From an uncultured archaeon (GTDB lineage: Archaea > Aenigmatarchaeota > Aenigmatarchaeia > QMZP01 > QMZT01): DNA of 64,000 bases. Location of the stretch: assembly GCA_964441265.1 (NCBI GenBank), contig CAYYKJ010000003.1:23428-87427 (forward strand), given 5' to 3'. A program made the translations under genes and the position numbers. The notes below the pieces were generated by a model. The model made no database searches. It was given only the letters and a program-made list of their open reading frames with translations, and was not told the DNA's origin. Shown piece by piece: positions 4,953 to 60,734 of the stretch (position 1 is its first letter; each line of letters opens with the position of its first letter).

Positions 4953-4991
4953 AGTAGTATAATGTATAATATACTATTTAAAGGTTTTTCC

Positions 4992-5543
4992 TCACTTCAC
5001 CCAGCAAAATTCAAAATAGCTGCATTTTCTACACATTTTCCTCTTTTCTGGTTCCGGTGGCTTCTCCATTGAAACTATATCACTTATATTTCTCAGGATG
5101 TCTTTTATTCTAGTTTCATTGTCCTCGGTAAGAATGATGGATTTTGTCTTCCTTAATTTGGGGTAATCTATCACCCCCTCAGCATCTACGCCTTTCTGTT
5201 TGAGATAATAAAGGTAATACAGGAGCTGGCAGACGTGGGCGTCTTCCATCTTGTTTGACTTCTTGATGTCGTGGAGCAACAGCTTGCCGCCTCTTTTCAT
5301 GAAATCTATGGATATCCTGGAATCTATCATTATTTCTTTCTTGGCGCCGGCATAGCTTGCTTCATGAATCACCCTGCCCATGGCCACGGCATCGGATTCG
5401 CGCTCCTGCCTTATGAAATGCGAGAAATACCAGAGTTTGGTGGGGCATATCACGTAATAGTTTACCTGCGTCCCTGTGAAGACACATTGCTTCGAAATCA
5501 TACGAATGGCCTCAGAACTCAAGAATCTCATCAACAAATGCAC
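4992..5543 (-). CDS. cas4: Cas4 RecB-like nuclease, apparently intact
   Basis: N-terminal FTGTQVNYYVICPTKLW, a QLLYYLYYLKQKG (QxxxY) motif, an IDF...LLHDIKK (D...DxK) motif, and a C-terminal CRKCSYFEFC cysteine cluster. All four Fe-S cluster cysteines are present. Confidence 0.8.
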   Translation of the reverse strand: MHLLMRFLSSEAIRMISKQCVFTGTQVNYYVICPTKLWYFSHFIRQERESDAVAMGRVIHEASYAGAKKEIMIDSRISIDFMKRGGKLLLHDIKKSNKMEDAHVCQLLYYLYYLKQKGVDAEGVIDYPKLRKTKSIILTEDNETRIKDILRNISDIVSMEKPPEPEKRKMCRKCSYFEFCWVK

Positions 5544-6882
5544 AGAAGACCAATGCAGGAATCAGCATTATATTGATGTTCTTGTCTTTAACTATCCTGA
5601 AATCGCTCTTTGTTATTATGAATCCACTGCTGCATCCGATCTTCCTCATCTCTTCTTTTACTTTCTTGATGTCCTTTTTTGTTACCCTTTCCCTGTATTT
5701 GACCTCGATTAACGTCGTCTTTTCGCCTTTGACCACAAAATCTATCTCACCGTTGCTTCTGAGATACGTCATCCTCTTTCCATGCTTCGAACAACTGATG
5801 AAACAGTGAACTCCCACTATGTTTTCAATGACAAACCCTTCGTTGTCTTCCTTTATCTCATAGTCCCTGAGCAATGAGTTCCTTATGCCCTGGTCCACGC
5901 ACAGGAATTTCTTTTTGGATTTCAGCTGCTCCTTAACCGTTTTGGCAAGCTTCAGTATTTCGATTATGAGATAGGATGATTTCAAATACTCTATATAATT
6001 TGTGAGTATCTCATGCTTCAGCCTTGCCGCCTCGTTTATTTTTTCATAGCTTAATATCCTTGACTGGTTTGCAATGATGAAAACGAAAATCTGCTCCAGA
6101 ATCTTTGCATTCCTTATTCTGAAAGTAGTCGTTATGTCCTCGTATATCGCCTTGTTTGAAATTGAGTTTTTCAGTATTCTGAACCAGTCCCTGAAGTCTT
6201 TCACCTCAAAGAATTCGGGAAATCCTCCTGCAAGCATGTACTGCCTGAAATCCTTTTTGTACGCATCAAGGATTTTATCAACCGAAACGGCATCTGTTTT
6301 AAAATGAGTGACCTCCGTCCCCTTAAGCTCCATGAACTGCCTGAAGGACAAGGGCCATACCTCATGCAGAATGTATCTGCCCCTCAGGTACCTGTTGGCT
6401 TCTTTTTGCAGGGTCAGGCTTGACGAACCCGAAATGAATATCTTTATGTCTTTGTGTCTGTCGTATGCAACCTTAAGCCATTTGTACCACTCACTAACAA
6501 AATGTACCTCATCGAAAAACACGTATTTTTTACCTTCTTCCGCTATATTTTCCAGCCAGTAATCAAAAATGTCCTTGATAAGGTTATCAGAATATATCTT
6601 AAGATATGGATCCTCAAGAGAATAGTACAGAATGTTCCTGGGCTTTGCTCCCTGCTTGATGAGCCTCGCCATGATGTGCTTCATCAGGACGCTCTTGCCA
6701 ACCCTCCTCGGCCCGGTAATTATGGATATCTTTTTCAGCCGGGCGTCGCTGTGAATCTCCTCGACCTCGTCCCTCTCCAGGGGGTAATCCTCCTTCTCCT
6801 CAACCTTCCCGGTAAGCCAGAACCTGTTCGCCTTCTCAAGCTCCTGCCTGAAGACCCCCCTGTCCTTTATCATATTAACCAT
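5512..6882 (-). CDS. AAA ATPase of the AAA_14/DUF4143 type with a C-terminal PD-(D/E)xK-like domain
   Basis: Walker A motif ISIITGPRRVGKSVLMKHI, Walker B motif VFFDEVH, and a C-terminal GEIDFVVKGEKTTLIEVKYRE nuclease-like motif. Its 3' end overlaps the cas4 start, which suggests an operon. Confidence 0.7.
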   Translation of the reverse strand: MVNMIKDRGVFRQELEKANRFWLTGKVEEKEDYPLERDEVEEIHSDARLKKISIITGPRRVGKSVLMKHIMARLIKQGAKPRNILYYSLEDPYLKIYSDNLIKDIFDYWLENIAEEGKKYVFFDEVHFVSEWYKWLKVAYDRHKDIKIFISGSSSLTLQKEANRYLRGRYILHEVWPLSFRQFMELKGTEVTHFKTDAVSVDKILDAYKKDFRQYMLAGGFPEFFEVKDFRDWFRILKNSISNKAIYEDITTTFRIRNAKILEQIFVFIIANQSRILSYEKINEAARLKHEILTNYIEYLKSSYLIIEILKLAKTVKEQLKSKKKFLCVDQGIRNSLLRDYEIKEDNEGFVIENIVGVHCFISCSKHGKRMTYLRSNGEIDFVVKGEKTTLIEVKYRERVTKKDIKKVKEEMRKIGCSSGFIITKSDFRIVKDKNINIMLIPALVFCAFVDEILEF

Positions 6883-6984
6883 TATAGTGGAACATATTTA
6901 TATATTTTTATGCCAGTATAGTGGGAGAAAAGAAAAAGCAACGTCGAGCTCAAGACTTATAACTTTTGGTGATTTTTTAAGAAA

Positions 6985-7066
6985 GCCTGACCGGGCATAC
7001 AATGTAATGATTTACATGGGTTCCTGTGAAGAGATATTCCTTCGCCAGTAGGTCTTGCATAATACC
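6985..7066 (-). pseudogene. cas4: Remnant of a second cas4 gene (N-terminal 27 codons, then a stop)
   Basis: The minus strand translates to MQDLLAKEYLFTGTHVNHYIVCPVRLS*. Compare the intact Cas4 KQCVFTGTQVNYYVICPTKLW. DNA identity with the 5457..5489 region is about 75%. Confidence 0.5.
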
Positions 7067-7288
7067 TCACACAAGCAATAAAAATAACCAGGCAGGAACA
7101 AACATAATCCTTTTTTGTTTAACTCTTTTTTCTTCCAACCTTTCCCGCGTTCATAACGTATTTTATTTGTATTATGGCACAAGTAACCTTTAAGTCTACT
7201 TGTAGAATCATATAAGTAAATTTTGGCGAGTTTTTGGCACGGCTGTTAGGAAAGCGGGTTTAAGACGGGATCTGATTCGGGTTTTGGG

Positions 7289-8506
7289 TTAGATGATGTT
7301 ATTTCCAAATTGATTTATTTCCTCTTTGTCTATATCTTTTATAACATCGATTCCCTTTTCTCTTATACTGTCCATGGTTTCTTTTTTCTGCTTTTTCATG
7401 ACAAAAAATCCTTTGAATTCATGGGAGACTAATCCCCACTTAAGCCAGGGCTTTGCCAGATAAAATTCTGGCAAATTCACTGAATATTCATACAGTATTT
7501 TCTTTAATTTCCATCTTAGGTTTTTTCTTTCTTGATTATTCTCACTTATTTCGATTCCATCTTTTTGTAACTTGTCTAGTATCTCATTCCAAGAAATATT
7601 ATTATTTTCTCTATCATTAATTATTTTAGCAAATGTTTTTCTCAATTTCACATCATCCTCCTCTTTTTCATTTTCTTCTTGCTCTTCAATCTCCATCAAT
7701 TGAGGAATAACCATTTGCATTCCACCAAGTCTTCTGAAAATTCTTTGGGCGTCACTTCTTTTTTCAGCTGTAAGGTACTTTAAATAATCTAGATTTTTCT
7801 TTATCTCTAGTATGTATTTTGAAGTTAGCGAATTTCCATCCTCCTCCTTTCCAAAAACATCATCGATCAGCTCTCTTTCTTTTTCATAATTGAGCGGTTG
7901 ATTCTCAAATTTCTTTAGAATTTTCACAGTGGATTCCATTACTTCTTCATCATAAATTGCCTTGCTTCCCCTGTCTTTACTGAAATTTGAAAAGACAATT
8001 ATGTTTGGTTCAACGACTTTATTTTCCTTATTCCTATTTATTCTCCCCCATCTCTGAATTTGGCTATCAATAGGGGAAACCTCCGTGATCATAAAATCGA
8101 AGTCTACATCTACAGATGCCTCAACCATCTGAGTAGATACCAAGATTACTTTTTTGCCTTCATCCAACCTCTCTTTAATTTTCTCTATTCTTTTACCTTT
8201 TACTTTCTCTGTTAGCCGTGAATTTAGCAAGAAAAAGCCGTCTTCTTCATTTTTTCCAAATTTTTCATAAAGTTCTATTGATTTTTTTACATTGTTTACT
8301 ATTATCATGGTACTGACTTCGTTTTCTTTAAAATCCTTCACCGGGAATATATTGGAAAAGCAGAAGTATTTGTATGTCCTTTTGTCGTGAAGCTCATCAT
8401 AGGCACTGCCCTTCAATAATTTATAGAAAAAACCCTGCAATTTTTTATAATACAACATATCATAAACACAATCCTTCTCAACATTGAAATTCAGGAGAAT
8501 TCTCAT
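7289..8506 (-). pseudogene. cas3: In-frame fusion of a Cas6 N-terminus (about 58 aa) to the Cas3 helicase C-terminal half. This is a remnant of a type I-B-like cas operon.
   Basis: The N-terminus MRILLNFNVEKDCVYDMLYYKKLQGFFYKLLKGSAYDELHDKRTYKYFCFSNIFP looks like a Cas6 N-terminus with the F-x-F-S motif. It is followed by MIIVNNVKKSIELYEKFG...FFLLNSRLTEKVKGKRIEKIKERLDEGKKVILVSTQMVEASVDVDFDFMITEVSPIDSQIQRWGRINR, which matches Cas3 helicase motifs IV to VI plus the Cas3 C-terminal domain. The HD domain, Walker A and DEAH motifs are absent. Confidence 0.65.
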
Positions 8507-33432: not shown

Positions 33433-34395
33433 TCACTCTTTTATTTCCTCTTCGTCTTCCTTGACCTTTTCCTCGACCTCGTCCTTTATCCCCAGCTTCT
33501 CCACCACCTCTTTGTACCTGTTGCGGATGGTGACCTCGGTGACGCCTATGGCGTCCGCCACCTCCCTCTGGGTCTTCTTCTTTCCCTCGAGGACGGCAGA
33601 TATGTAAAGTGCAGCGGCCGCGACCCCGATCGGACCCTTTCCGGAGGTCACGTCATAGCTGGTGGCCTTGTCGAGTATCTTTACAGCCCTGACCTGGACC
33701 TTTTCGTCCAGACCGAGCAGCGAACCGAATCTAGGGATGTAATCCTGGGGCTTTGCGGGCAGTATCCTTATGCCCAGCTTTCTCGCTATGTATCTGTATG
33801 TCTTGCCTATGTCCCTCTTGGATATACCGGATGCGTTGGAAATCTCGTCCAGCGTCCTGGGAGCTCCCTCCTCCCTGCAGGTGGTATAAAGCAGGGCGGC
33901 AATTATGGACTCGGTCGATCTTCCCCTCACCAGACCCCTTTCCACTGCCTTTTCGTAGAGCTTGGCCACCCTCTCGTGTATGGCCTGGGAAAGGTTGAGA
34001 TAGGATATGAGCCTCTGAAGTTCTGAGAATGCGAATGAAAGGTTTCTGTCTTTTGATTTTATGAGCCTCTTGTGCCACTTGGAGAGCCTGTAATACTGGG
34101 CCCTTTTCTTGGCGGCTACCTTGAAGAGTTCACCCCGTCCCTTTCCGATCTCGGTGGTGATCCCCTGGTCGTGCTTGGTGACGGTCAAGGGGGCTCCTGT
34201 CCGGACCCTTCTCGACCTCTGGTTGTCGTCGAAGGCCCTCCATTCCTGGCTTGTGTCTATTACCGACTGGTTTATGACCAGCCCGCACTTGGAGCAGACC
34301 ATCTCCCCCCTCGAAGAATCATAACGTATGTTTTCGCTCTTGCATTCCGGACAAACTGTCTTTCTTTCCTCTTTCTTTTTGATTTTTTGGGTCAT
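33433..34395 (-). CDS. tfb: Transcription initiation factor TFB
   Basis: N-terminal Zn ribbon CPECKSENIRYDSSRGEMVCSKCG and two cyclin-like repeats. 320 aa. Confidence 0.9.
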   Translation of the reverse strand: MTQKIKKKEERKTVCPECKSENIRYDSSRGEMVCSKCGLVINQSVIDTSQEWRAFDDNQRSRRVRTGAPLTVTKHDQGITTEIGKGRGELFKVAAKKRAQYYRLSKWHKRLIKSKDRNLSFAFSELQRLISYLNLSQAIHERVAKLYEKAVERGLVRGRSTESIIAALLYTTCREEGAPRTLDEISNASGISKRDIGKTYRYIARKLGIRILPAKPQDYIPRFGSLLGLDEKVQVRAVKILDKATSYDVTSGKGPIGVAAAALYISAVLEGKKKTQREVADAIGVTEVTIRNRYKEVVEKLGIKDEVEEKVKEDEEEIKE

Positions 34396-45875: not shown

Positions 45876-46271
45876 TCATCTCATGCTGAAAGAATACCTT
45901 CCGGGAGCCCATTTACCTCCCGAGGCCCGGTAGCCACATTTGGGGCATTTAGCTCCGGATACGAGCTTACGGCCCTTCAGGTTCTTGGTGTAGAATCTTC
46001 GGAGGCCGTGGCCGCAGGAGGGGCATTTTTTTCGGGACTTTCCTTTTTTCGTGCGGATGATGACCCTGATTCCGCTGGCTTTCAGGCAGATTTTCCTTAT
46101 CCTGGAACCGGAAATGGTATATCTCGGCTCGACCTTCTTGAGGTCGGCATTCACCATCTCGCCCAGCTTCTTCTGTGAATCCACTTCCCTCTTCTTCAGG
46201 ATCTTTCTGAGAATGAAGACCACCACGTCCTCCTTGGGACGCTTGGAACCCTTAACTTTCGCCCTGGGCAT
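45876..46271 (-). CDS. Basic zinc-ribbon protein (putative nucleic-acid binding)
   Basis: C-terminal CPSCGH...CPKCGY ribbon. Lys/Arg-rich. Confidence 0.4.
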   Translation of the reverse strand: MPRAKVKGSKRPKEDVVVFILRKILKKREVDSQKKLGEMVNADLKKVEPRYTISGSRIRKICLKASGIRVIIRTKKGKSRKKCPSCGHGLRRFYTKNLKGRKLVSGAKCPKCGYRASGGKWAPGRYSFSMR

Positions 46272-46788: not shown

Positions 46789-47157
46789 TTATTTGTTCTT
46801 GACTCTTATATCCCTTTTTTCGGCGTTCTCGAGAATTTCGAGCCTTTTCTTCTTCCCGACGGTTCCGGAAATAACCGCGATTTCTTCGTCTTTTTTTATT
46901 CCTTCCAGTCCGGAGGGGTTGTACACGAGGACCTCTTTCATGCCTTCCCTGTCGAGCCCCCTAACACCGGAAGGGCTTCCGTAACCGGGATTTGGCGGGC
47001 TGGATTTGCCCTTGAGCCGCATCCTCATCTTGGAGCGTATTCCCCTGGGCTTCCTCCACTTGTCCTTGAGTCCCTTCCTCTTGTATTCCTGCCTCTTGAA
47101 CCGGGGCTTCTTCTTCTTTATCTCTTTCCTTATCTCAATCTTTTCCTTCATTTTCAT
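46789..47157 (-). CDS. rpl32e: Ribosomal protein L32e
   Basis: RQEYKRKGLKDKWRKPRGIRSKMR...GYGSPSGVRGL...EVLVYNPSGLE...VGKKKRLEIL. Confidence 0.7.
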   Translation of the reverse strand: MKMKEKIEIRKEIKKKKPRFKRQEYKRKGLKDKWRKPRGIRSKMRMRLKGKSSPPNPGYGSPSGVRGLDREGMKEVLVYNPSGLEGIKKDEEIAVISGTVGKKKRLEILENAEKRDIRVKNK

Positions 47158-47683
47158 CCTCTGTGTATGGCTTTCTGACTATGTAGCATCCGTCCTGGAA
47201 CACCCTCTTGTCGTATCCCTTTATTTTGGTGCTGTGTTCTATCCTGGCGCACAGCTGGCCCACCCTTTCCTTGTCAGTCCCTGACACACGGATGGTGCTC
47301 TTGTCTATGTCAACCTTCAGGTCTTCCGGTATGGAAACGTACCTGGGATTCTTCTGCCCCAGGAAGTTTTCTATCACCAGCTTCCCCTGATCGGACTTCA
47401 TCTTGACCGGGAAATGGGAATAGACCATCTTCACTTCCCCATTCCATCCCTTGGTCACGCCGAGAATCATGTTGTTTATGACCGCCTTCCAGGTTCCCAT
47501 GACAGCCCTGACTTTTTTCCTCTCGTTTTTCGAGGAAAGGGTTATCTTGCCGTTTTCTATTTTCACCTCTACGAACGGGTTGGAGAACCTCCTGGAGAGT
47601 TCTCCCTTGCTGCCGCTGATTTTAAGATTTCCGTTTTCTTCTTTCACATCGGCCCCTTCAGGGATCTCGATTTCATGCATCAT
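47135..47683 (-). CDS. rpl6: Ribosomal protein L6 (uL6)
   Basis: Two-domain L6 pattern with C-terminal RVGQLCARIEHSTKIKGYDKRVFQDGCYIVRKP. Confidence 0.75.
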   Translation of the reverse strand: MMHEIEIPEGADVKEENGNLKISGSKGELSRRFSNPFVEVKIENGKITLSSKNERKKVRAVMGTWKAVINNMILGVTKGWNGEVKMVYSHFPVKMKSDQGKLVIENFLGQKNPRYVSIPEDLKVDIDKSTIRVSGTDKERVGQLCARIEHSTKIKGYDKRVFQDGCYIVRKPYTEDENEGKD

Positions 47684-47758: not shown

Positions 47759-50590
47759 TTACTTCTTTCCTCTCTTTTTCTTTCCCGATTTTTTCCCGGA
47801 TTTCTTCTTCTTTGTGGTACCTTTCTTGCCAGCGGATTTTGTTTTCCCGGTCTTCTCCCCGGTTTTACTGCCGGCCTTCTTTCCGGAAGACTTCTTTTTC
47901 TCGGATTTTGTCCTGGCTGATTTCTCTCTCTTGGACTTCTTTGTTTTCTTCCTGCCGGAGGACTTGGGTTCCCCGGCCTTCTTTTTCGTTTTCTTTTCAG
48001 TTTTTTTCTTCTTGCTTCTCTTTCCGGAGCCCGGCCCCTTCATACCCTTCATTCCGCTTATCTTCCCGCTTTCCTCCGGTTTCTCCCTTTCTTCTCTGGG
48101 AATCTGCTCCCCGGGGAACCTTCCGATCAGCCTGAAAGCCCCTGTCCCCAGGGGTATGACCTGATTCATTATTATGTTCTCCACCTGCCCTCGAAGGGAA
48201 TCCCTTTCACCGTTTATTGAGGCGTTGATTATGTGCTTTTTTGTCTCCTCAAAAGACATCCTGGCGATCACAGAGGGCTTGCTCCCTGCGATTCCGTACC
48301 TCCCAATCCCCATTATATTACCCGAATACGTCATCAGGTCGGCCAGAAGGGAGACGTATCTCGGGTCGACCCCCAGCCCCTGCTCCTCTATGGTGTGGAC
48401 GGCCTCCTGTATTATCGCATTCCTGGCCGCCTCTATGCCGAGAACACTACATATCTCAAATATGTTGTTGCAGGTGGTCTTTGTCGGATCCACCCCTTCC
48501 ACAGCCAGTATCTTCTTGAGGTTGGAACCGAGGGTGCTTATTATCCATCCCTCATCCTCTTTGCTCACAATAACGTGGGAAATGCCCTTTACTCCCTCTA
48601 TATGGGACTCCATGACCTTGTATTTCAGCTTGTGGAGGTTGATGTTCTCGGTCTTCTTGGAGGTCACGGATATCTCGGAACCCTGGACATCGACATCCAC
48701 GTTCTTTATCTTTATGTGCTTCTTCAGGTCTTCCACGTCCAGATTGAAATCCCTGAGCTTTTTCTTGTTGAGCTTGAGCCTTATGACCAGGTTTATGAGA
48801 TCTATAACGTCACCCACCACGAAGTCCCTGAGCTTGACCTCCTTTATTTTCTTTGCTACCTTGAGCGCCTTTTCCTCGCTCTGGTAGTCCTTCATAAGGT
48901 GTATGGTCATGCTGGGCGTTTCCGGCTTTTTCTTCGCGTCGTATATCTCGATTAGACGTGGCAGACCCAGGGTTACCTGTATGCCTGCGACCCCTGCGAA
49001 ATGGTAAGTCCGCATCGTATTGTGGGTTACGATCCCGTCGAAAGTAGTGAACGTTTCCGTCCCCTCCACGGTGAAATCATATACATAATCATTGGACGGC
49101 CTTACGCGGGAAATCTCGGTTATCTTATCCCAGACCACGTCCGAATTGAGCATTGTCTTCATGACCTTCAGTTCATTTTCTATGTCGATGCCCTTTGATT
49201 CGGAGAGTCTTTCAAAAATACCCACGTATTTGGCAAGGGTCGATCTTCCTATTCTCTGTCTCCCGGTGAAATTGTTGACATATCTCGTGGGGTAGCCCAG
49301 CTTTTTCGCCGTCCTTAGGAACAAATCCCCGAATCCTCCCACCATGTCGGTGAAGTCCTGGAATTTACCATTCTTCCCAAAAAACCCGCATAGCCTCTCG
49401 AGTCTCTCCTTCTTTTCGTCAACGGAAAATCCTATATTCTCCCTGAACAGACCGGCATATTTATAGGGTATCGCCAAATTGAACTGTTTGTCAATGCTCT
49501 TGTTTGCAAATATCCCGAACCTTGTCAGCAAGAGCTTGATACCGTCAATGAGCTCCTCCGAATTGGACGATGCCCTTATCATCCCCCTGTCCACTGAGAC
49601 ATTGCCGTCCCCGTCGAAATACCCCTTCAGCAGCCCGGACACGAACTCCTTCTTTGCGCCATATGAGAAATATGGAACCCTTTTCGAGCCCGAGCCGGTA
49701 CCGCAAACCGCCTTCATCAGTCTGCTCAGGATAATGGAGTTTATCCTTATGTCATGTCCCTTTGAGAAACCGCGGAAATTGTCATATTCATTGAAGGTGA
49801 ATCCGTGCGATCTGGCGAACTTCCTGATTTTTGAAAGGAATTCACTGTCTACGTTGGAGAAGGAAACGTAATATTTCGTGGATTGACCTTCGGAAAGGTA
49901 TGCCCCGAAAATCCATCCCAGGGACTTGTCAAGGTCGATTTTTTCGGGGAGGGGCTTCCTAATGAAAGAATCGGTTTCCCCTATGGCATCCTTCAAATCA
50001 AGGGACTGGAGACAATTTTCAGACAGAAATTTCATAGAGGGAATCCTGCTACCGATTTTCAGTTGTTTTCCAGATATCGGGACTATTTTGTTGTTTTCCC
50101 TGACAACGAAAGAATGGGAATCGGTGGCCGTTATTTCTCTTCCTGAAAGGGTTCTGATTTTTATCAGTTCTTCGGGTGCCTTGTGCCTGCTGCATGAAGA
50201 AACCCTTTTCCACTCAATCTTCTCCTTGCCAGTTATGCTGGGGACAAAAACTTCCCCATCAGAAAAATCGAATATCTCCCAGCCGTTCTCTTCTTTCTTC
50301 CCGAAGACATCCATAACACTGTCCACGAATTCCCCGATTTTAGGTGTTATTATGCATCCATTATTCTTCAGTATTACCCTTTCGTTGTGATCTAGGGACA
50401 TCTGGGTGGCCGGCTCGGATAGCGACTGGGCCGCAACGACGCCCATGGCCTCCTCCGGATAATAGAGCGCCTTGTTGTAAAGCACCCTGACCCTTCCGAT
50501 CAGTTCTGCGGAGTCCATGCCATTCTCTTTGGCGTATTCCTCCACTTCCTTCCTTATCTTCAAAGGCAGTTCTCTCATTTTATCATCCAT
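47759..50590 (-). CDS. rpoA2: DNA-directed RNA polymerase subunit A'' carrying an intein and a C-terminal Lys-rich tail
   Basis: Exteins ...VVAAQSLSEPATQM | TMRTYHFAGVAGIQVTLGLPRLIEI... match conserved A'' blocks. The 943 aa total breaks down to a normal A'' of about 360 aa, a 460-aa intein, and a tail of about 120 aa. Confidence 0.9.
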   Translation of the reverse strand: MDDKMRELPLKIRKEVEEYAKENGMDSAELIGRVRVLYNKALYYPEEAMGVVAAQSLSEPATQMSLDHNERVILKNNGCIITPKIGEFVDSVMDVFGKKEENGWEIFDFSDGEVFVPSITGKEKIEWKRVSSCSRHKAPEELIKIRTLSGREITATDSHSFVVRENNKIVPISGKQLKIGSRIPSMKFLSENCLQSLDLKDAIGETDSFIRKPLPEKIDLDKSLGWIFGAYLSEGQSTKYYVSFSNVDSEFLSKIRKFARSHGFTFNEYDNFRGFSKGHDIRINSIILSRLMKAVCGTGSGSKRVPYFSYGAKKEFVSGLLKGYFDGDGNVSVDRGMIRASSNSEELIDGIKLLLTRFGIFANKSIDKQFNLAIPYKYAGLFRENIGFSVDEKKERLERLCGFFGKNGKFQDFTDMVGGFGDLFLRTAKKLGYPTRYVNNFTGRQRIGRSTLAKYVGIFERLSESKGIDIENELKVMKTMLNSDVVWDKITEISRVRPSNDYVYDFTVEGTETFTTFDGIVTHNTMRTYHFAGVAGIQVTLGLPRLIEIYDAKKKPETPSMTIHLMKDYQSEEKALKVAKKIKEVKLRDFVVGDVIDLINLVIRLKLNKKKLRDFNLDVEDLKKHIKIKNVDVDVQGSEISVTSKKTENINLHKLKYKVMESHIEGVKGISHVIVSKEDEGWIISTLGSNLKKILAVEGVDPTKTTCNNIFEICSVLGIEAARNAIIQEAVHTIEEQGLGVDPRYVSLLADLMTYSGNIMGIGRYGIAGSKPSVIARMSFEETKKHIINASINGERDSLRGQVENIIMNQVIPLGTGAFRLIGRFPGEQIPREEREKPEESGKISGMKGMKGPGSGKRSKKKKTEKKTKKKAGEPKSSGRKKTKKSKREKSARTKSEKKKSSGKKAGSKTGEKTGKTKSAGKKGTTKKKKSGKKSGKKKRGKK
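49019..50398 (-). mobile_element. Intein with a LAGLIDADG homing-endonuclease domain inserted in rpoA''
   Basis: Begins SLDHNERVIL right after TQM and ends ...FDGIVTHN followed by the extein T. Two LAGLIDADG motifs (LGWIFGAYLSEGQS and LLKGYFDGDGNVS). Confidence 0.8.
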
Positions 50591-53076
50591 TAAATATTCA
50601 TCTTCCAGTTGAGTTGTCCCCAGTCGGTCTTCGATGGGTCCATCCCGTCCTCGCCAGCAAAGAACTGTATGACATTGTTATTGGAATCCCTGACCGCCAT
50701 GTCCTCGCAGACCTTGAGGTCCTGAAGAGAATTCATGAGCCTTCTCTGCATGTAACCGGACTTTCTGGTACGGAGCGACTTGTCCATGAGCCCCTCCCTG
50801 CCGTTCATCACGTTCCAGAAGAACTCGAAAGGGGTGAGCCCCTGTTTGAATCCCCTCGAAACGAAGCCGTGCGCCTCTGCCGAAAGGTCTCCCTTGGCGA
50901 AATGGGGAAGTATCCTATCCATGTAGCCTCTCTCTATCCTCTGACCAAGTATGGTTTCCGATCCGACGCAGGCGGACATCTGGGTAGTGTTTATGTTAGA
51001 ACCCTTGGCTCCGGAAGAGGACATCACGAGTATGTCGCTGGGGCTTATCTTCTCAACCATTATCTCGCTGACCCTGTTCAGCCCCTCCGCAAGCGCGGAG
51101 AGTATCTGGGTCTCCAGTGACTCCTTGGGGGTCATCCCGGGAAGCACTTTTATCTTCTTATTCTTGTATTCCCCGATGAGCCTGTCCGCATCCACCTTCG
51201 ACTTGTCTATTTCCTTTTTTATGTCCGAGAGAGTCCTCTTGGGAAGGTCAAGGTCTGTCAATCCTATGGAAAATCCCCTTTCCATGAGATAGGAAACCGA
51301 AATTCTTCCGAGATGGTCTATGAAATTCTTGAGTTCCTCGTTGTTGACGTTCCTCCTCACCTTGTTTATCATCTTCCCCTTGAAGGCTCCCACTGCAGAA
51401 CTGTCCAGAACTCCGCTGACAAGCTCCCCGTTCTTGATTGACACCCATGCATCATAGGGACATTTTTCCCTCGTACACTTTTCGCATTCCCTGCATATCC
51501 CCGCCTTGTATTCCATGTTGAGCCCCTTCGGCAACAGGAGGCTTATGACTTCTTTCCCGGTGAACTTCTCCTTGTCGGGAATCTCGGCTTCAATTCTCGC
51601 CCGGGCGAAGAGTTCAGATGCCTCCTCTTTCGTGAAAACATTTCCCTTCTGGCTAAGCAGGAATATTCCTGATATCTGGTCCAGGTCCAGCCCCACCAGG
51701 GGCCCCCCGAATCTGGGTGATATTATATTGTTCTTGACGTCCATGAGCTCCAGTGCCTCCACCTGGGCCTCTTCGGACTGCAGGGCATGTATGTTCATCT
51801 CGTCCCCGTCGAAATCCGCGTTGTAAGGGGCACAGACGCTCGGGTTCAGCCTGAATGTCCTGTGGGGAGTCACCTTTACACGATGGGCCATTATGGACAT
51901 CCTATGAAGGGAGGGTTGCCTGTTGAACAGAACCACGTCCATGTCCTTCAGCTGCCGGTCTATTATCCATCCTTTCTCGAGAGAGGAAAGTATTTCCTTC
52001 TTGTTTTCCTCGGTCACCTTTATCTTCCTGCCATCGAGCCTGGTGACGTAGTTGACCTTGCCGTCTTTCAGCATGCTCTTGACGTCCTTCATGTTTAGCG
52101 AGGTTATGGTCTGGGGTATGGTCAGCTCGCTGGCCACTATGTCCGGTATGCCCACCTCGTTTATGGAGAGCGTAGGGTCGGGGCTGATAACGGTCCTTGA
52201 CGAATAATTCACCCTCTTTCCGAGAAGGTTGCCCCTGATCCTTCCCTCCTTGGCCTTGAGCCTCTGTATCATTCCCTTCAGCGGCCTCCCTGACCTGTGT
52301 CTTGCCTGGGGAACACCCGTCAGCTGGTTGTCGAAATAGGTGGCCACGTGATACTGGGAAAGCTCCCATAGGTCATTGAGTATGAATTCGGGCGCTCCTA
52401 TGTCTATGTTCTCCTTCAGGGACTGGTTTATCCTCACTATGTCCACCAGCTTGTGTGTCAGGTCGTCCTCTGACCTCTCCCCCGTCTCCAGCGTGATGCT
52501 GGGCCTCATGGTCACGGGGGGTATCGGGAACAGCGTGAGTATGAGCCACTCCGGCCTGCCTCCCCGGAAACCCAGCTTCTCCAGGTCATCTTTGGATATC
52601 CTTTCCATCCATTCCCGGATAAATATGGGATTGAGCTCCTCTTTTCCGGCGTAATAGGTGAATGGCTTGGAAAACTTTATCTTCTTCTGTTGCTTGCCGC
52701 AGTGGGGACACCTCTTGGTAGCGCTCTTGGAGGCCTGCTTGAGGGAGACCGGATTCTTGGATAGTATCTTACCGCACTTCATACAGGTCGCCTTCATGAG
52801 CTGGTAAATCTGCTTCGTGTAAAGTACGTGGACCACCGGCCTGGCCAGTTCCAGATAACCGAAATGCCCGGGGCAGTCCCCTATGCTTGCCCCGCATGTC
52901 CTGCACCTTATACCGGGATCAACGACTCCCATCCTCGGGTCCATCACTCCGCCGTCTACGGGGTAACCGTCCGCATCGTAAAGGTCGGAAGTGACGATCC
53001 TGACGGTAGCCAGCGATTTGATTATTTCCGGGGACAATATTCCGAAACCCATGGCTTCTATTTTTGCAGTGTTCAT
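50590..53076 (-). CDS. rpoA1: DNA-directed RNA polymerase subunit A'
   Basis: N-terminal Zn motifs (CRTCGASIGDCPGHFG), NADFDGDEMN and other RNAP largest-subunit blocks. 828 aa. Confidence 0.9.
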   Translation of the reverse strand: MNTAKIEAMGFGILSPEIIKSLATVRIVTSDLYDADGYPVDGGVMDPRMGVVDPGIRCRTCGASIGDCPGHFGYLELARPVVHVLYTKQIYQLMKATCMKCGKILSKNPVSLKQASKSATKRCPHCGKQQKKIKFSKPFTYYAGKEELNPIFIREWMERISKDDLEKLGFRGGRPEWLILTLFPIPPVTMRPSITLETGERSEDDLTHKLVDIVRINQSLKENIDIGAPEFILNDLWELSQYHVATYFDNQLTGVPQARHRSGRPLKGMIQRLKAKEGRIRGNLLGKRVNYSSRTVISPDPTLSINEVGIPDIVASELTIPQTITSLNMKDVKSMLKDGKVNYVTRLDGRKIKVTEENKKEILSSLEKGWIIDRQLKDMDVVLFNRQPSLHRMSIMAHRVKVTPHRTFRLNPSVCAPYNADFDGDEMNIHALQSEEAQVEALELMDVKNNIISPRFGGPLVGLDLDQISGIFLLSQKGNVFTKEEASELFARARIEAEIPDKEKFTGKEVISLLLPKGLNMEYKAGICRECEKCTREKCPYDAWVSIKNGELVSGVLDSSAVGAFKGKMINKVRRNVNNEELKNFIDHLGRISVSYLMERGFSIGLTDLDLPKRTLSDIKKEIDKSKVDADRLIGEYKNKKIKVLPGMTPKESLETQILSALAEGLNRVSEIMVEKISPSDILVMSSSGAKGSNINTTQMSACVGSETILGQRIERGYMDRILPHFAKGDLSAEAHGFVSRGFKQGLTPFEFFWNVMNGREGLMDKSLRTRKSGYMQRRLMNSLQDLKVCEDMAVRDSNNNVIQFFAGEDGMDPSKTDWGQLNWKMNI

Positions 53077-54884
53077 ATCTCATCAACCGTAAGTCTGGGG
53101 TATACCCCCATGGACTTGAACTCGTCAAGTGTGAGCTTGAAAGCATAAGATGTGTTGACCCAGAGGACCTTTGAGTTTTTGCAAAGCAGGCAACGGGCCG
53201 AATTCTTTGCCCTGTCGTAAATGGCTATCAGGCCGCATTTCTGGCATATGGGAATGACAGTCTCGTCCGAGCTGAACCTCTCCTTCAGCGTCATCGCGGC
53301 TCCGTGCCCCACCAGGCACTGCTGCTCCATCTCTCCCAGACGAAGGCCTCCCCTCTTGGAGCGCCCTTCCGTGGGCTGCCTCGTAAGTAGGGTCACGGGT
53401 CCCTTCGACCGGGCGTGTATCTTGTCAGCGACCATGTGGTCGAGCTTCATGTAATAGGTTATACCGGTAAATATCATGACTTCATATTTCTTTCCACTCC
53501 TCCCGTCGTAGAGGGTCTCCTTCCCGTCATCTCTGAAGCCGAGCTTGAGCATCTCTTTCCTTATGTCATCTTCCTTCGCGCCTGAGAACGTGGATCCGTC
53601 GACTATCTCCCCGGAGTAAGCGGAATACTTCCCGGTGAGCACCTCCATCAGCTGGCTCACGGTCATCCTGGAGGGTATGCCGTGGGGATTGAAGACCACG
53701 TCAGGGACCACGCCGTCCTTGGTGAAGGGCATGTCCTCGTGGGGCACCAGAAGAGAGGTGACCCCCTTCTGCCCGTGCCTGGTGGCGAACTTGTCACCGA
53801 GTTCCGGAATCCTCTGGTCCCTTATCCTCACCTTGAGCATGTGCTCTCCGTTTGTGGTTTCGCTTATGAGGACCTTGTCAACTACTCCCCTTTCCCCGTG
53901 CCTCACCGTGACGGAGGACTCCCGCTTGTTCTCTATGTCCATGGTGAAATCCCCCCCGGTCAGGAACCTGAGAGGAGAAACCTTACCCACGATTATGGAA
54001 TCAGATTCAACCGGGGTCTCGACGTTTATTATCCCGTCCTCGGCCAGGTCTTCGTAGGCATCGTCCCCCCTGTATCCCTTTATGCCTGGCTCGGGAACAC
54101 AGATGCTGTCCTCCTGGCCGCCCCAGTACCTTTTCTTTGAAGTCTGATATGTCCTGAAGTAAAAAGACCGGAACATTCCCCTCTCCACTGAACTCCTGTT
54201 CAGAACCACGGCGTCGTTCATATTGAAGCCGTCCCAGCACATTATAGCTATCACAACGTTCTGGCCGTAGGGATGATATTTGAGTATGTCGTCCGTTTTG
54301 GTCCTGACCAGCGGACGCTGAGGATAGGAAAGCACGTTGAACTTCGTGTCGCTCCTTATGAGGAAGTTGTCCACCGGGGCGCCTATCGCCTGCCCCACCA
54401 TCTTGGCGCCGTAGTTTACCCTGTCGCCCCTGTTATACTCCGAATACGGAGTCAGGCTTGCGGATATTCCCAGGACAAGTATGGGATTGAGCTCCAGGTG
54501 GGTGTGGTCCTTGGTGACCTCAGAGGGGTCAATCGCTATGTATGCGTTCTCCTCCTCCTCCGCGTCCAGGTATTCTATTATCCCGTGCTTTATCAGGTAT
54601 GTCCAGGTGATCTTGCCTGACATGAGCTTTTTTACCAAGGAATCGGTAAGTTTGGGCTTCCCGTTGCTGACTATTATTAGCGGCCTCCTTGCCCTACCGG
54701 AGTCGCAGTTTACCCGTATTTCGGAGAACCTTTCGTTGTACGCAACGTTTATCTGGTCCGGCAGTATGCTGTGCCTTCTCCTTTTCTTTATGTTGCCTAT
54801 GAAGGCCGAGGCGTCCCTTACAGAACCCATGTAATTGCCGTTGAAATACACGTCTACCGGTTCCCTCGAAGATTTTTTCGTCAT
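53073..54884 (-). CDS. rpoB1: DNA-directed RNA polymerase subunit B' (C-terminal part of a split RpoB)
   Basis: GDKFATRHGQKG...PSRMTVSQL and a C-terminal Zn motif CQKCG...CLLC. 603 aa. Confidence 0.9.
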   Translation of the reverse strand: MTKKSSREPVDVYFNGNYMGSVRDASAFIGNIKKRRRHSILPDQINVAYNERFSEIRVNCDSGRARRPLIIVSNGKPKLTDSLVKKLMSGKITWTYLIKHGIIEYLDAEEEENAYIAIDPSEVTKDHTHLELNPILVLGISASLTPYSEYNRGDRVNYGAKMVGQAIGAPVDNFLIRSDTKFNVLSYPQRPLVRTKTDDILKYHPYGQNVVIAIMCWDGFNMNDAVVLNRSSVERGMFRSFYFRTYQTSKKRYWGGQEDSICVPEPGIKGYRGDDAYEDLAEDGIINVETPVESDSIIVGKVSPLRFLTGGDFTMDIENKRESSVTVRHGERGVVDKVLISETTNGEHMLKVRIRDQRIPELGDKFATRHGQKGVTSLLVPHEDMPFTKDGVVPDVVFNPHGIPSRMTVSQLMEVLTGKYSAYSGEIVDGSTFSGAKEDDIRKEMLKLGFRDDGKETLYDGRSGKKYEVMIFTGITYYMKLDHMVADKIHARSKGPVTLLTRQPTEGRSKRGGLRLGEMEQQCLVGHGAAMTLKERFSSDETVIPICQKCGLIAIYDRAKNSARCLLCKNSKVLWVNTSYAFKLTLDEFKSMGVYPRLTVDEI

Positions 54885-56350
54885 TTCACGCCCATCTCCT
54901 TTATGCTGCCCAGCAGGTCTTCTTCGTCCTTGGCGGAAAGGCCGGAGGTGATTTCCGTCAGAAGCGCCAGGTGCTTTCTGAGGCCTATCGAGGATCCCTC
55001 AGGGGTCTCGGCGGGGCAAAGCCTCCCCCACTCCGTGGGATGTACCTGCCTTGCCTTGAAATGCTCCTGAGTGGAAGTCAGCGGCGAGAGCACGGATCTC
55101 AGGTGAGAGACCGATTTTATGAATGAGCTCCTGTCCAGCCTCTGGGACACCCCCGTTCTCCCTCCTATCCAGGCCCCCGTAGCCAGTGAGGAGAGTATCT
55201 GTTTGGTTACCGTATTGGCCTCTATAATGGACTGGACTGAAGGGAATTTTCCCCTCTTGACCAACTTCTGGTAATTATAAGTCATCTTGGCTATCAGGCC
55301 CCATCTCCCCAGGAGTATGGATCTGAATAACTGCTCGAAAAGTTCCCCGGACATGAGAAGTCTCTTGTTGGAATAGTGATCTATGTCGTCGTCGGGGGAG
55401 ATGCCCAGCTTAACCGCTATGCATTTCCTTATCACCCTTGCCAGGTATTTGTCCTTCTTGGGCCTGTCACCTATCTCCTGGCCCAGATGAGGGAAAAGGT
55501 ACCTGTCCAATATCTGGTTTACCCTCTCTTCCACGTAATCCTTGCTGACCTTGAGCTTCCTGCCCATGAAAGCCTTGGCTTCCTCTGTGGTTATGACGTC
55601 CGTCTCGTAGAGGTTGGTGTAGAATTCGTTGAGTATCTTGCTGTCGTTGGAAATCATGGAGCAAAGCTCCTTGTCGTTCTCCTGTCCGAGCGCCTTCAGA
55701 AGAACCACTATGGGAAGGCGCTTTATGTTGGCGAAAGATATGGTAAGCTCGCCGTCGGGCTTCATCTCGATGAGGTGCCTCTGCTTGAAACCCGATTTTT
55801 CGGAATTTATCCTTATCATCACCCCGTCATCCGGGGTCTTCTCGAATATGGGCTTGTTGGAGGTGATTTCTTCTATGAGCACGAGCACCCTCTCCGTGCC
55901 GTTTACTATGAAATATCCACCGGGATCCATGGGATCCTCGCCCACCTCCACCATATCCTTGTCATCGAGGTCTGAAAGGTTGCAGACCTTCGAGCGGACC
56001 ATTATGGGAAGGTTTCCTATGTGGACCCTCTCTACCTTCTCCTGGACGCCGTTGAAAATGGGGATTATGTTAACGTAAAGAGGGGCCATGTAAGTGAGGT
56101 CGCGTATCCTTGACTCGTTGGGGTAGATCGTCCTGGTGGAGCCGTCCGCCTCGTGTATTGTGGGGACACCCACCTCGACCTTGCCGAACTTCAGCTTCAG
56201 ATCCTCCGCCTCCTGGATGACCCTGACGGTTCCCACCTCGTCTATTATTTTCTGGAGGCCGAAATCTATGAAATTGTTGAATGACTCGATCTGGTATTTG
56301 ACCCATTCCTTTTCCTTCTCGAAGCCCTTGACTAGAGACACGAATGACAT
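54881..56350 (-). CDS. rpoB2: DNA-directed RNA polymerase subunit B'' (N-terminal part of a split RpoB)
   Basis: 489 aa matching the N-terminal protrusion/lobe blocks of RpoB. A 4-nt overlap with B' confirms the split. Confidence 0.9.
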   Translation of the reverse strand: MSFVSLVKGFEKEKEWVKYQIESFNNFIDFGLQKIIDEVGTVRVIQEAEDLKLKFGKVEVGVPTIHEADGSTRTIYPNESRIRDLTYMAPLYVNIIPIFNGVQEKVERVHIGNLPIMVRSKVCNLSDLDDKDMVEVGEDPMDPGGYFIVNGTERVLVLIEEITSNKPIFEKTPDDGVMIRINSEKSGFKQRHLIEMKPDGELTISFANIKRLPIVVLLKALGQENDKELCSMISNDSKILNEFYTNLYETDVITTEEAKAFMGRKLKVSKDYVEERVNQILDRYLFPHLGQEIGDRPKKDKYLARVIRKCIAVKLGISPDDDIDHYSNKRLLMSGELFEQLFRSILLGRWGLIAKMTYNYQKLVKRGKFPSVQSIIEANTVTKQILSSLATGAWIGGRTGVSQRLDRSSFIKSVSHLRSVLSPLTSTQEHFKARQVHPTEWGRLCPAETPEGSSIGLRKHLALLTEITSGLSAKDEEDLLGSIKEMGVK

Positions 56351-56359
56351 TTCAAAACC

Positions 56360-56605
56360 TCACACCACAATCCTGTAATAAACCGATTCCCCGGCCATGG
56401 GAGAACGCCTCATGATTTCCAAAAGGTCGCCTGGTTTCGCTTTCAGTATTTTTACGACCGGGTCGTCAGACAGTATCTTCGGGAGTTTGTCTTCGGTGGT
56501 ATTGAACTTTTCAATGACCTGATTCTTTTCTTCTTCCGATAGAATTCGGAACTTCGGTACGAGTTCATGTATTAGTTTTTCAATCGATTTGATCACCTTT
56601 GACAA
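56360..56605 (-). CDS. rpoH: RNA polymerase subunit H (Rpb5-like)
   Basis: 81 aa ending ...KPGDLLEIMRRSPMAGESVYYRIVV. Confidence 0.8.
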   Translation of the reverse strand: MSKVIKSIEKLIHELVPKFRILSEEEKNQVIEKFNTTEDKLPKILSDDPVVKILKAKPGDLLEIMRRSPMAGESVYYRIVV

Positions 56606-56828: not shown

Positions 56829-56940
56829 TCCCTTTTGGTCCCACGCTTTTGTCGGGAAAAGGAAAAGCGTGGAGTGGAAGCGGTCAGCTCCCTTTTGGTC
56901 CCACGCTTTTGTCGGGAAAAGGAAAAGCGTGGAGTGGAAG
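56829..56940. repeat. Two identical tandem copies of a 52-bp unit (period 60 bp, 8-bp spacer). Each unit contains a 10-bp-stem hairpin.
   Basis: tcccttttggtcccacgcttttgtcgggaaaaggaaaagcgtggagtggaag occurs twice. The internal palindrome is CCACGCTTTT/AAAAGCGTGG. Confidence 0.6.
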
Positions 56941-57181: not shown

Positions 57182-57183
57182 AA

Positions 57184-57255
57184 CGCCTCGGCCGGGATTT
57201 GAACCCGGGTCCTGGGAGTGACAGTCCCAGATGATAACCACTACACTACCGAAGC
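57184..57255 (-). tRNA. tRNA-Asp(GUC), 72 nt, no encoded CCA
   Basis: GCTTCGG-TA-GTGT-AGTGGTTA-TCAT-C-TGGGA-CTGTCAC-TCCCA-GGAC-CCGGG-TTCAAAT-CCCGG-CCGAGGC-G. Only 2 nt separate it from the downstream Trp-like gene. The D-stem has one mismatch. Confidence 0.75.
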
Positions 57256-57327
57256 ATTAATTCCGGACTGACTGATGTCTTCTTTATTTATTTACAAATT
57301 TAAATATATTCTTATTCGTGGTTTCTT

Positions 57328-60544: not shown

Positions 60545-60712
60545 GGGAGCAGCGTTCTGGATTTCCCACCTATCACCGCCGAAAGAAACAGGCACGCCTG
60601 TTTCCTGCGAAACCCGAAACCTCCGGTTTCGGCAGTAATTCCCAGACCGCGGGGAGTCTTAACTTCTGTGTTCGAAATGGGAACAGGTGATCCCTCCCGC
60701 TTTGGCCGCTCG
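60545..60712 (-). rRNA. rrf: 5S rRNA, orphan gene, with an extended helix IV region (about 165-170 nt)
   Basis: Minus strand GAGCGGCCAAAGCGGGAGGGAUCACCUGUUCCCAUUUCGAACACAGAAGUUAAGACUCCCCGCGGUCUGGGAAUUACUGCC... aligns to archaeal 5S helices I-III, loop C and loop E (compare GCGGCCAUAGCGG...CCCAUCCCGAACACGGAAGAUAAGCC...AGUACUG). Helix V closes as GCGGUCUGG/CCAGAACGC and helix I as GAGCGGC/GCUGCUC. About 45 extra nt lie between the loop E strands. Confidence 0.6.
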
Positions 60713-60734
60713 ATATTCTAATTGCCGGGCAAGG

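Follow-up and report, generated by a model that had tools for sequence, protein, structure and literature searches.

The rpoA'' locus

The DNA analysed here, a stretch of 64,000 nucleotides (nt) from an uncultured archaeon of the Aenigmatarchaeota lineage (contig CAYYKJ010000003.1, positions 23,428 to 87,427; hereafter the window), carries on its minus strand the gene rpoA'' for subunit A'' (Rpo1C) of RNA polymerase (RNAP), the product of which ends in a lysine-rich tail of 119 amino acids (aa). The gene closes the operon rpoH-rpoB''-rpoB'-rpoA'-rpoA'', all on the minus strand, which is the operon setting of an A'' gene. Its open reading frame (ORF) of 943 aa (47759..50590) is composed of an N-extein, an intein, a C-extein and the tail. 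The NCBIfam model of A'', NF011491, matches residues 12–821 (E = 1.1e-262, 874 bits vs. a cutoff of 783), and the match to a second A'' model, TIGR02389, stops at residue 822, equivalent to position 365 of the 367 of the model; the score of the latter (380 bits) stays under its cutoff of 420 because the intein splits the match. Pfam recognizes the domains RNA_pol_Rpb1_5, Intein_splicing and LAGLIDADG_3. The ORF product is a member of the A''/Rpo1C family with a bona fide core, and after splicing this core amounts to 364 aa, followed by the 119 aa of the tail. Two contigs of Aenigmatarchaeota-type metagenome-assembled genomes, L002 and L003, with A'' cores 81% identical to that of the window, served for close comparison; this identity and the source names point to an Aenigmarchaeota (DPANN) archaeon. 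The following elements are distinguished:

47759..50590, minus strand: whole rpoA'' ORF (NF011491, 1.1e-262; Pfam RNA_pol_Rpb1_5, Intein_splicing, LAGLIDADG_3)
50399..50590, minus strand: N-extein of A'', aa 1–64, ending ...SEPATQM; uninterrupted in L002 as SEPATQMTMRTYHF
49019..50398, minus strand: LAGLIDADG intein, aa 65–524 (Ser1, C-terminal His-Asn, Thr+1), recognized by Pfam and NCBIfam
48119..49018, minus strand: C-extein core of A'', aa 525–824, ending in the conserved PLGTGAFRLIGR; aligned to solved Rpo1C chains and to yeast Rpb1 1356–1444
48059..48118, minus strand: proximal, acidic-to-neutral part of the tail, aa 825–844, FPGEQIPREEREKPEESGKI; the first 20 aa have a net charge of -2
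47762..48058, minus strand: polycationic K/G/S/T-rich part of the tail, aa 845–943, ending KKKRGKK; net charge +2 to +6 per 10 aa, pLDDT (predicted local distance difference test) 37–45
47759..47761, minus strand: stop codon TAA, with TATA-like intergenic sequence directly after it, conserved with L002 and L003
47684..47758, minus strand: intergenic region containing AACTTTTAAATA...CAATTTCACTA, a putative rpl6 promoter, which is conserved between the window, L002 and L003 and marks the 3' limit of the tail

The intein (460 aa, from Ser65 to THN524, followed by Thr525) lies between ATQM and TMRTYHF; its borders were placed by comparison with the uninterrupted homologue L002. It possesses splicing blocks, a nucleophile at position 1, a C-terminal His-Asn, a nucleophile at position +1 and two LAGLIDADG motifs (LGWIFGAYLSEGQ and LLKGYFDGDGNV), and is matched by the Pfam models Intein_splicing (9.9e-21) and LAGLIDADG_3 (2.8e-15) as well as by TIGR01445 and TIGR01443. 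Since it is missing in L002 and L003 and only some homologues have one, the intein is probably mobile. Its presence accounts for the length of the ORF, a feature absent from the preliminary description of this DNA, which was made from the sequence alone.

Composition and predicted disorder of the tail

Behind the end of the core (...PLGTGAFRLIGR) the tail runs from F825 (48116–48118) to K943 (47762–47764) and is closed by the TAA at 47759–47761. The Lys/Ser/Gly-rich extension of about 120 aa put forward in the preliminary description is confirmed, its sequence and coordinates having been given exactly. It contains 44 Lys, 18 Gly, 15 Ser, 11 Glu, 9 Thr, 7 Arg, 5 Pro and 4 Ala, its only aromatic residue is the Phe with which it starts, and its net charge is +40 vs. 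+4 for the 364-aa spliced core. At the lysine frequency of the core (9.9%), the probability of encountering at least 44 Lys in 119 residues is 2.7e-15. Charge is not evenly distributed: the tail opens with FPGEQIPREEREKPEE, continues at +2 to +6 per 10 residues and terminates in KKKRGKK. Potential modification sites comprise 24 Ser/Thr and the 44 Lys. When the entire 64 kb was scanned in six frames, at least 15 Lys in 30 aa were encountered nowhere else.

In the AlphaFold2 model, built with a 60-sequence alignment, the core has pLDDT values of 90–97, and the tail is devoid of secondary structure with values of 37–45, which are compatible with disorder and no proof of it; the tail is thus predicted to be intrinsically disordered. 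Pfam places no domain in it, and the NCBIfam matches are confined to compositional overlaps with PRK02597 (aa 772–899) and PRK14900 (aa 859–938), both far under cutoff. Heptads of the kind found in the C-terminal domain (CTD) of RNA polymerase II (Pol II) do not occur in the tail, which has no match to Y.P..P., no Tyr, no SP and no TP, and the spacing of Lys and Arg along it reveals no clear periodicity, the top autocorrelation being 0.24 at lag 5, with no period at lag 7. The tail had also been likened to AT-hooks and to histone H1. The first likeness fails, the cores RGRP and GRP being absent from the window tail and each present in 1 of 107 tails of related proteins (see below). The second holds at the level of the clade, for composition and predicted disorder; it does not extend to S/TP[KR][KR] (SPKK-type) motifs, which are lacking in the window tail and found in 4 of these 107, nor to the precise composition, which is K/G/S-rich in the window and K/A/E/P-rich in the pooled related tails.

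At the DNA level, the tail contains two weak 12-nt repeats of about 2.2–2.3 copies; a strong tandem repeat structure is therefore rejected. A run of seven A (T7 on the plus strand) at 48001–48007, within the codons AAG AAG AAA AAA ACT, is a possible site of indels or slippage, and the frame is intact across it. A non-coding RNA overlapping the tail is rejected as well, the Rfam matches in the window being one tRNA and one 5S rRNA, both elsewhere. Two opposite-strand ORFs (47812..48135 and 47814..48164) are not regarded as genes: their products are rich in F, S and L, as is expected from the complement of the Lys, Glu, Ser and Gly codons of the tail.

The tail in Aenigmarchaeota and its authenticity

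In the preliminary description a comparison with rpoA'' of related genomes was proposed in order to distinguish a real extension from the artefact of a lost stop codon. We examined the 120 closest homologues, taken as clusters at 90% identity from many independent assemblies. An extension of at least 30 aa following the motif PxGTGAFxLxGRxP is present in 107 of them, all Aenigmarchaeota-type A'', and it is in frame and lysine-rich. Extension length has a median of 53.5 aa and ranges from 4 to 146 aa over the 120 homologues (30–146 aa in the 107); counted from the same motif, the window tail measures 110 aa and is among the eight longest. The pooled composition of the clade tails is 40% K, 13.5% A, 13% E and 9.5% P, and the ratio K/(K+R) is 0.92. 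Along their length the acidic fraction falls from 0.28 to 0.03 (D+E 28% in the first quintile) and the basic fraction rises from 0.22 to 0.59, and in 90 of the 107 at least three of the last four residues are K or R. The tripeptide AKK occurs in 92 and KKP in 67 of the 107. What these tails share, as judged from their sequences, is composition and layout (an acidic start, a basic body and a KKK(K) end), not sequence.

Direct comparison with L002 and L003 leads to the same picture. The junction ...GTGAFRLIGRFPG is colinear with both contigs, and in all three the tail is enclosed between conserved anchors, ...GTGAFxLIGRFP upstream and the TATA-like AACTTTTAAATA...CAATTTCACTA directly 3' of the stop codon. 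Between these anchors tail length differs, with 119 aa after GRFP in the window and 69 and 74 aa in L002 and L003. Moreover, a contig of the independent Logan assembly SRR7048220 codes for the identical protein of 943 aa. No relative was found to have a canonical stop codon with the tail in another frame; in the tail-less L004, L005 and L007 the rpoA'' gene is directly followed by the next one. From the AAR-rich DNA, which is open in several frames, and from the A7 homopolymer inside the tail, one might suspect that the ORF runs into non-coding or out-of-frame sequence through an error of sequencing or assembly, the recent loss of a stop codon or a frameshift. With 107 of 120 homologues, drawn from many independent assemblies, having in-frame K-rich extensions, and with a colinear junction, an identical protein in a second assembly, a conserved promoter-like element directly after the stop codon and no out-of-frame counterpart, this explanation is ruled out for practical purposes. 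That the tail exists and is maintained at the level of the clade is in our judgement very probable.

The tail is kept in about 90% of a clade the cores of which have diverged to about 53–58% identity. Between L002 and L003 the ratio of nonsynonymous to synonymous substitution rates (dN/dS) is about 0.37 for the tail (63 codons, with in-frame indels) and about 0.035 for the core, a rough estimate which suggests that the tail evolves faster than the core and does not look neutral. In one subgroup (P0048, P0049, P0050, P0053 and P0056) a conserved, helix-like charged segment (PKVPxExKKEYEK...EAERLK...) is inserted between the A'' core and the K-rich tail and may be a structured adaptor.

Distribution in other archaea

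A tail of this kind is nonstandard for archaeal A'', as the preliminary description had supposed. Solved archaeal Rpo1C chains (391–397 aa) end 3–9 residues past the aligned core, and among the 150 representatives at 50% identity a tail is confined to the four closest clusters (55–58% identity), most of the others ending 7–25 aa after GTG. With 126 aa after PLGTG the window A'' departs from this typical architecture of at most about 25 aa, its membership of the family being unaffected. L004 and L005, which belong to a more distant Aenigmatarchaeota lineage (49% identity), end canonically in ...PIGTAMCDLVFKPKTSKEK, and so does the A'' of L006 from Methanofastidiosia. Of the 120 Micrarchaeota-type A'' compared, only two exceed the usual 319–372 aa by about 90–100 aa, namely P0236 (433 aa), which was the query, and P0273 (425 aa); the K-rich tail was read in P0236, and the extension of P0273 is known by its length. 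A general DPANN trait is rejected on the basis of these two length-extended proteins out of 120 and of the canonical ends in L004, L005 and L006. The taxonomic limits of the tailed clade are coarse, the scan of GTDB genomes having yielded five loci.

Extensions of other types occur sporadically among the sequences surveyed. The tail of P0236, from relatives of Micrarchaeota, is K-rich and built from 17-aa tandem repeats, and P0135, from Nanohaloarchaea, has an acidic tail of about 140 aa containing a duplicated module of about 45 aa (...DRVTLVEWLxGR); a similar duplicated module is found in P0147. The sequences compared thus indicate that the A'' C-terminus recurrently gains extensions and that the Aenigmarchaeota clade alone has consistently retained a polycationic one. 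Full-text searches of the literature found no description of a lysine-rich A'' tail, and a 2026 survey of the evolution of archaeal RNAP subunits, which discusses the Rpo6 forms of Aenigmarchaeota, nowhere uses the terms 'lysine', 'C-terminal extension', 'Rpo1C' or 'CTD'. The tail is previously unremarked, the proteins themselves being already public and annotated simply as A''.

Position on the polymerase and proposed function

Residues 734–822 of the window protein align to residues 1356–1444 of the 1733 of yeast Rpb1, residue 822 corresponding to Rpb1 1444 at the end of region H. This equivalence places the start of the tail directly after the homologous GTGAF motif. The attachment point of the tail corresponds to the beginning of the Rpb1 linker and CTD; like the CTD, the tail extends the largest subunit at its C-terminus, beyond conserved region H. 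At the back of the enzyme, Rpo6/omega holds this part of the largest subunit. In Pol II, the RNA exit channel and the Rpb4/7 stalk are close to the CTD (PMC5389574). As to function, Sulfolobus Rpo13 no longer binds double-stranded DNA once its lysine-rich C-terminal tail of 20 aa is deleted (PMC3479171), and prokaryotic lysine-rich low-complexity regions are found enriched in DNA-binding proteins and have been connected with non-specific binding of DNA and RNA (PMC6821194).

Based on these precedents and on the charge of +40, we propose the tethering of nucleic acids as the main role of the tail, a proposal for which we consider the chances to be about even. The tail hangs from region H (PLGTGAF...), the last element conserved in the largest subunit, in the vicinity of the stalk and the RNA exit channel, and its short acidic proximal segment is followed by about 100 residues with 40–50% lysine. 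Such a chain would most simply serve as a flexible electrostatic tether for nucleic acid of any sequence, be it nascent RNA or DNA in an upstream or flanking position. It might thereby raise the general affinity of the polymerase for template or transcript, with a possible effect on nucleoid retention, template search or processivity. Composition and charge pattern are maintained, and sequence and length drift through slippage and short duplications. Which nucleic acid is the ligand, and what the effect on transcription would be, we only infer.

Several points weigh against this proposal. Low pLDDT fits disorder without proving it. A flexible chain of 119 aa could reach nearly any surface of the enzyme, so that position alone does not identify the ligand. 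Low sequence conservation, together with a length varying more than 10-fold, fits weak constraint, and the dN/dS of the tail derives from 63 low-complexity codons with dS near saturation. Alternative frames of the AAR-rich DNA are also open, and ORF length alone hence proves nothing. Finally, P0051/L007 is nearly tail-less with the same synteny (the protein ends in GRIGKKGK, and rpl6 follows after 32 nt), and P0045, P0047 and P0100 have very short ends; as these few members of the clade have lost nearly all of the tail with synteny intact, the tail is not essential.

Alternative explanations

The explanation that competes best is a neutral or near-neutral expansion of low-complexity sequence, in which slippage in AAR-rich DNA inflated an ancestral extension that was tolerated at the solvent-exposed C-terminus of A'' and poorly purged in small DPANN populations. 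Lengths between 4 and 146 aa, low sequence conservation, short tandem repeats in the tail DNA (clear ones in P0236), loss of the tail with intact synteny in some lineages and a dN/dS about 10 times that of the core are all in its favour. Such an expansion does not readily account, however, for retention in about 90% of the clade despite the divergence of the cores to about 53–58% identity, for the acidic-to-basic polarity and the KKK(K) end common to the clade, or for the preference of Lys over Arg (92%), the tails being never E- or R-rich as other frames would give. The dN/dS of 0.37 lies below 1, other genes of the 64 kb show no comparable expansion, and the sister DPANN lineage Micrarchaeota is almost wholly without tails. 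We consider neutral expansion unlikely.

A bolder interpretation starts from the correspondence with the Pol II CTD. According to it, a DPANN clade would independently have given its RNAP a long disordered C-terminal domain at the CTD site, and other DPANN archaea would have done so again with different chemistry (K-rich repeats in the Micrarchaeota branch, acidic modules in Nanohaloarchaea); the tail would be a functional organiser coupling the exiting transcript, through charge and possibly Lys modification, to ribosomes, RNA-processing factors or RNAP clustering. This scenario appears to us unlikely. Were it true, the C-terminus of the largest subunit would be a recurrent docking site for co-transcriptional coupling, and the tail a prokaryotic model of the origin of the CTD.

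Alternatively, the tail would be a CTD-like platform, a functional analogue of the Pol II CTD and more than a clamp for nucleic acids, that recruits proteins (acidic factors, processing or translation machinery, ribosomes) or clusters and condenses RNAP with RNA, and acetylation or methylation of Lys might regulate it. In favour of a platform are the attachment point, which is that of the Rpb1 linker and CTD and lies close to the stalk and the RNA exit, and the nature of the tail, which is long, repetitive and predicted to be disordered, with its 24 Ser/Thr and 44 Lys as candidate modification sites. In addition, methylation has been reported for one lysine of the basic segment of Rpo13 (PMC3479171), and another report ascribes to the lysine-rich disordered regions of small nucleolar ribonucleoproteins an electrostatic role in nucleolar compaction (PMC11528048). 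Against this stand the absence from the tail of heptads and of any conserved short linear motif (no Y.P..P., SP or TP), the lack of a clear K/R periodicity, and a turnover of sequence too fast for the recognition of specific motifs; nor is any partner, kinase, phosphatase or acetyltransferase linked to the tail in the window. A platform of this type is in our opinion distinctly unlikely.

Another polyanion, or the enzyme itself, could be the target, the tail docking to polyphosphate or anionic membrane lipids and thereby localising RNAP, or folding back on acidic RNAP surfaces or on its own acidic segment, with an autoinhibitory or solubilizing effect. The H1-like protein AlgP organises polyphosphate granules (PMC9239181), and an acidic proximal segment joined to a basic body is a polyampholyte arrangement compatible with self-interaction. 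The argument is purely analogical, however, the window has no context genes for polyphosphate or membrane association, and the natural ligands of RNAP are nucleic acids at high local concentration; we consider this role very unlikely. Fusion of rpoA'' with a once separate gene for a small basic chromatin or ribosomal protein could be imagined from the rearrangement of the operon 3' of rpoA'' relative to the canonical rpl30e-nusA order, and it is highly improbable, seeing that the tail has no predicted fold and no Pfam or NCBIfam domain beyond the low-scoring compositional overlaps with two long models, that no separate basic ORF lies between rpoA'' and rpl6 in tail-less relatives, and that tails of every length begin at the same conserved motif.

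Comparison with known systems

Of the systems to which the tail can be likened, the tail of Rpo13 is by analogy the nearest in function and the Rpb1 CTD the nearest in position. With the Pol II CTD and its linker the tail has in common a long, repetitive or low-complexity sequence with (predicted) disorder, the same attachment point on the largest subunit, and evolution by repeat expansion. On the other hand, it lacks YSPTSPS heptads, Tyr and SP/TP, and is polycationic (+40) where the CTD is a neutral phosphorylatable scaffold. There is no detectable sequence homology between the two, the tail occurs in a DPANN clade and not in the lineage leading to eukaryotes, and nothing ties it to the recruitment of factors.

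The Sulfolobus Rpo13 tail, likewise disordered, lysine-rich and C-terminal on a subunit of an archaeal RNAP, is the best functional precedent. It differs in that Rpo13 is a separate small subunit, placed between Rpo5 and the clamp head at the downstream DNA, and in that its tail measures about 20 aa (aa 85–104) vs. 119 aa, is found in Sulfolobales and is not homologous. The pooled composition of the clade tails resembles that of the H1-like K/A/P tails of bacterial nucleoid proteins and enzymes (AlgP, histone-like proteins, topoisomerases, Ku), which are disordered, as is predicted by AlphaFold2 for the window tail, and linked to non-specific DNA binding. These H1-like tails are a compositional class and not a homology family, and the window tail deviates from them in being K/G/S/T-rich (3% A, 4% P, 15% G, 13% S) and in residing on a catalytic RNAP subunit instead of a chromatin protein. 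The C-terminal extension of the Pol I subunit A34.5/RPA34 is also charged, largely disordered and highly divergent in sequence between species (10.1101/2021.05.31.446457). There, however, the first approximately 40 residues are ordered and anchor the heterodimer to the core, the remainder has a nucleolar localisation signal, and both subunit and location are different. Compared with canonical archaeal A''/Rpo1C (Thermococcus, Sulfolobus, Saccharolobus), the window core belongs to the same family and to the same operon rpoH-B''-B'-A'-A''; the canonical proteins are represented by solved chains of 391–397 aa without a tail, vs. a spliced core of 364 aa plus 119 aa in the window.

In the textbook view, it was eukaryotes (Pol II) that invented a long disordered domain at the C-terminal end of the largest RNAP subunit, and archaeal A'' ends flush with the core; here an archaeal clade keeps a polycationic one of 30–150 aa. 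If the tail binds DNA or RNA, it would provide very reduced genomes with a built-in, factor-independent means of tuning the affinity for template or transcript. The tail would also be a simple, graftable system for the effect of an appended disordered region at the RNA-exit side of a Pol II-like enzyme. For genome annotation, it follows that such tails should not be trimmed as read-through errors.

Neighbouring genes and other features of the window

The genes surrounding rpoA'' are:

50590..53076, minus strand: rpoA' (Rpo1N), 828 aa, without a tail, its stop codon overlapping the start of rpoA'' (ORF and family search)
53073..56350, minus strand: split rpoB, with B' (603 aa) at 53073..54884 and B'' (489 aa) at 54881..56350; no tails, stop and start codons overlapping
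56360..56605, minus strand: rpoH, 81 aa, with which the rpo operon begins, assigned from operon position and reading of the sequence only
46789..47683, minus strand: rpl6 (47135..47683) and rpl32e (46789..47157), downstream of rpoA'' (family search)

Behind the conserved TATA-like element, rpl6 and rpl32e come next after rpoA'' in the tailed clade. In the tail-less L004, L005 and L006 the gene after rpoA'' is the canonical rpl30e, with nusA next in L004 and L006 and with rps12-rps7 in L006. The TFB gene is located at 33433..34395. K-rich tails are absent from the TFB, Topo VI A/B, OGG, RpoA', RpoB'/B'' and RpoH proteins of the window, and a proteome-wide habit of such tails is not seen in these 64 kb, despite the presence of TFB, Topo VI, RpoA', RpoB and RpoH.

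Downstream of rpl32e, an ORF at 45876–46271 (minus strand) encodes a basic protein of 131 aa with two CxxC pairs (zinc ribbon) from an unannotated family; its weak Cas12f TNB-like match (E = 2.7e-4) is under cutoff. An ORF of near-identical length lies at the same place in L002, and L007 has an unannotated gene of 126 aa in a similar position. A stretch of lower GC content (0.38–0.43) at 3552–8506 (minus strand), which may be a mobile or defence-related island, carries genes for ATPase_2/DUF234 and AAA_14/DUF4143 proteins and for a protein with only a Cas3-like C-terminal helicase domain. The 5S rRNA gene at 60602–60713 (minus strand; Rfam, 46.4 bits) stands alone, with no 16S or 23S rRNA gene nearby in the window. 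Between rpoH and the tRNA-Asp gene (57183–57256) there is a perfect 52-nt direct repeat (56829–56880 and 56889–56940, at a spacing of 60 nt) with an internal palindrome, CCACGCTTTT...AAAAGCGTGG.

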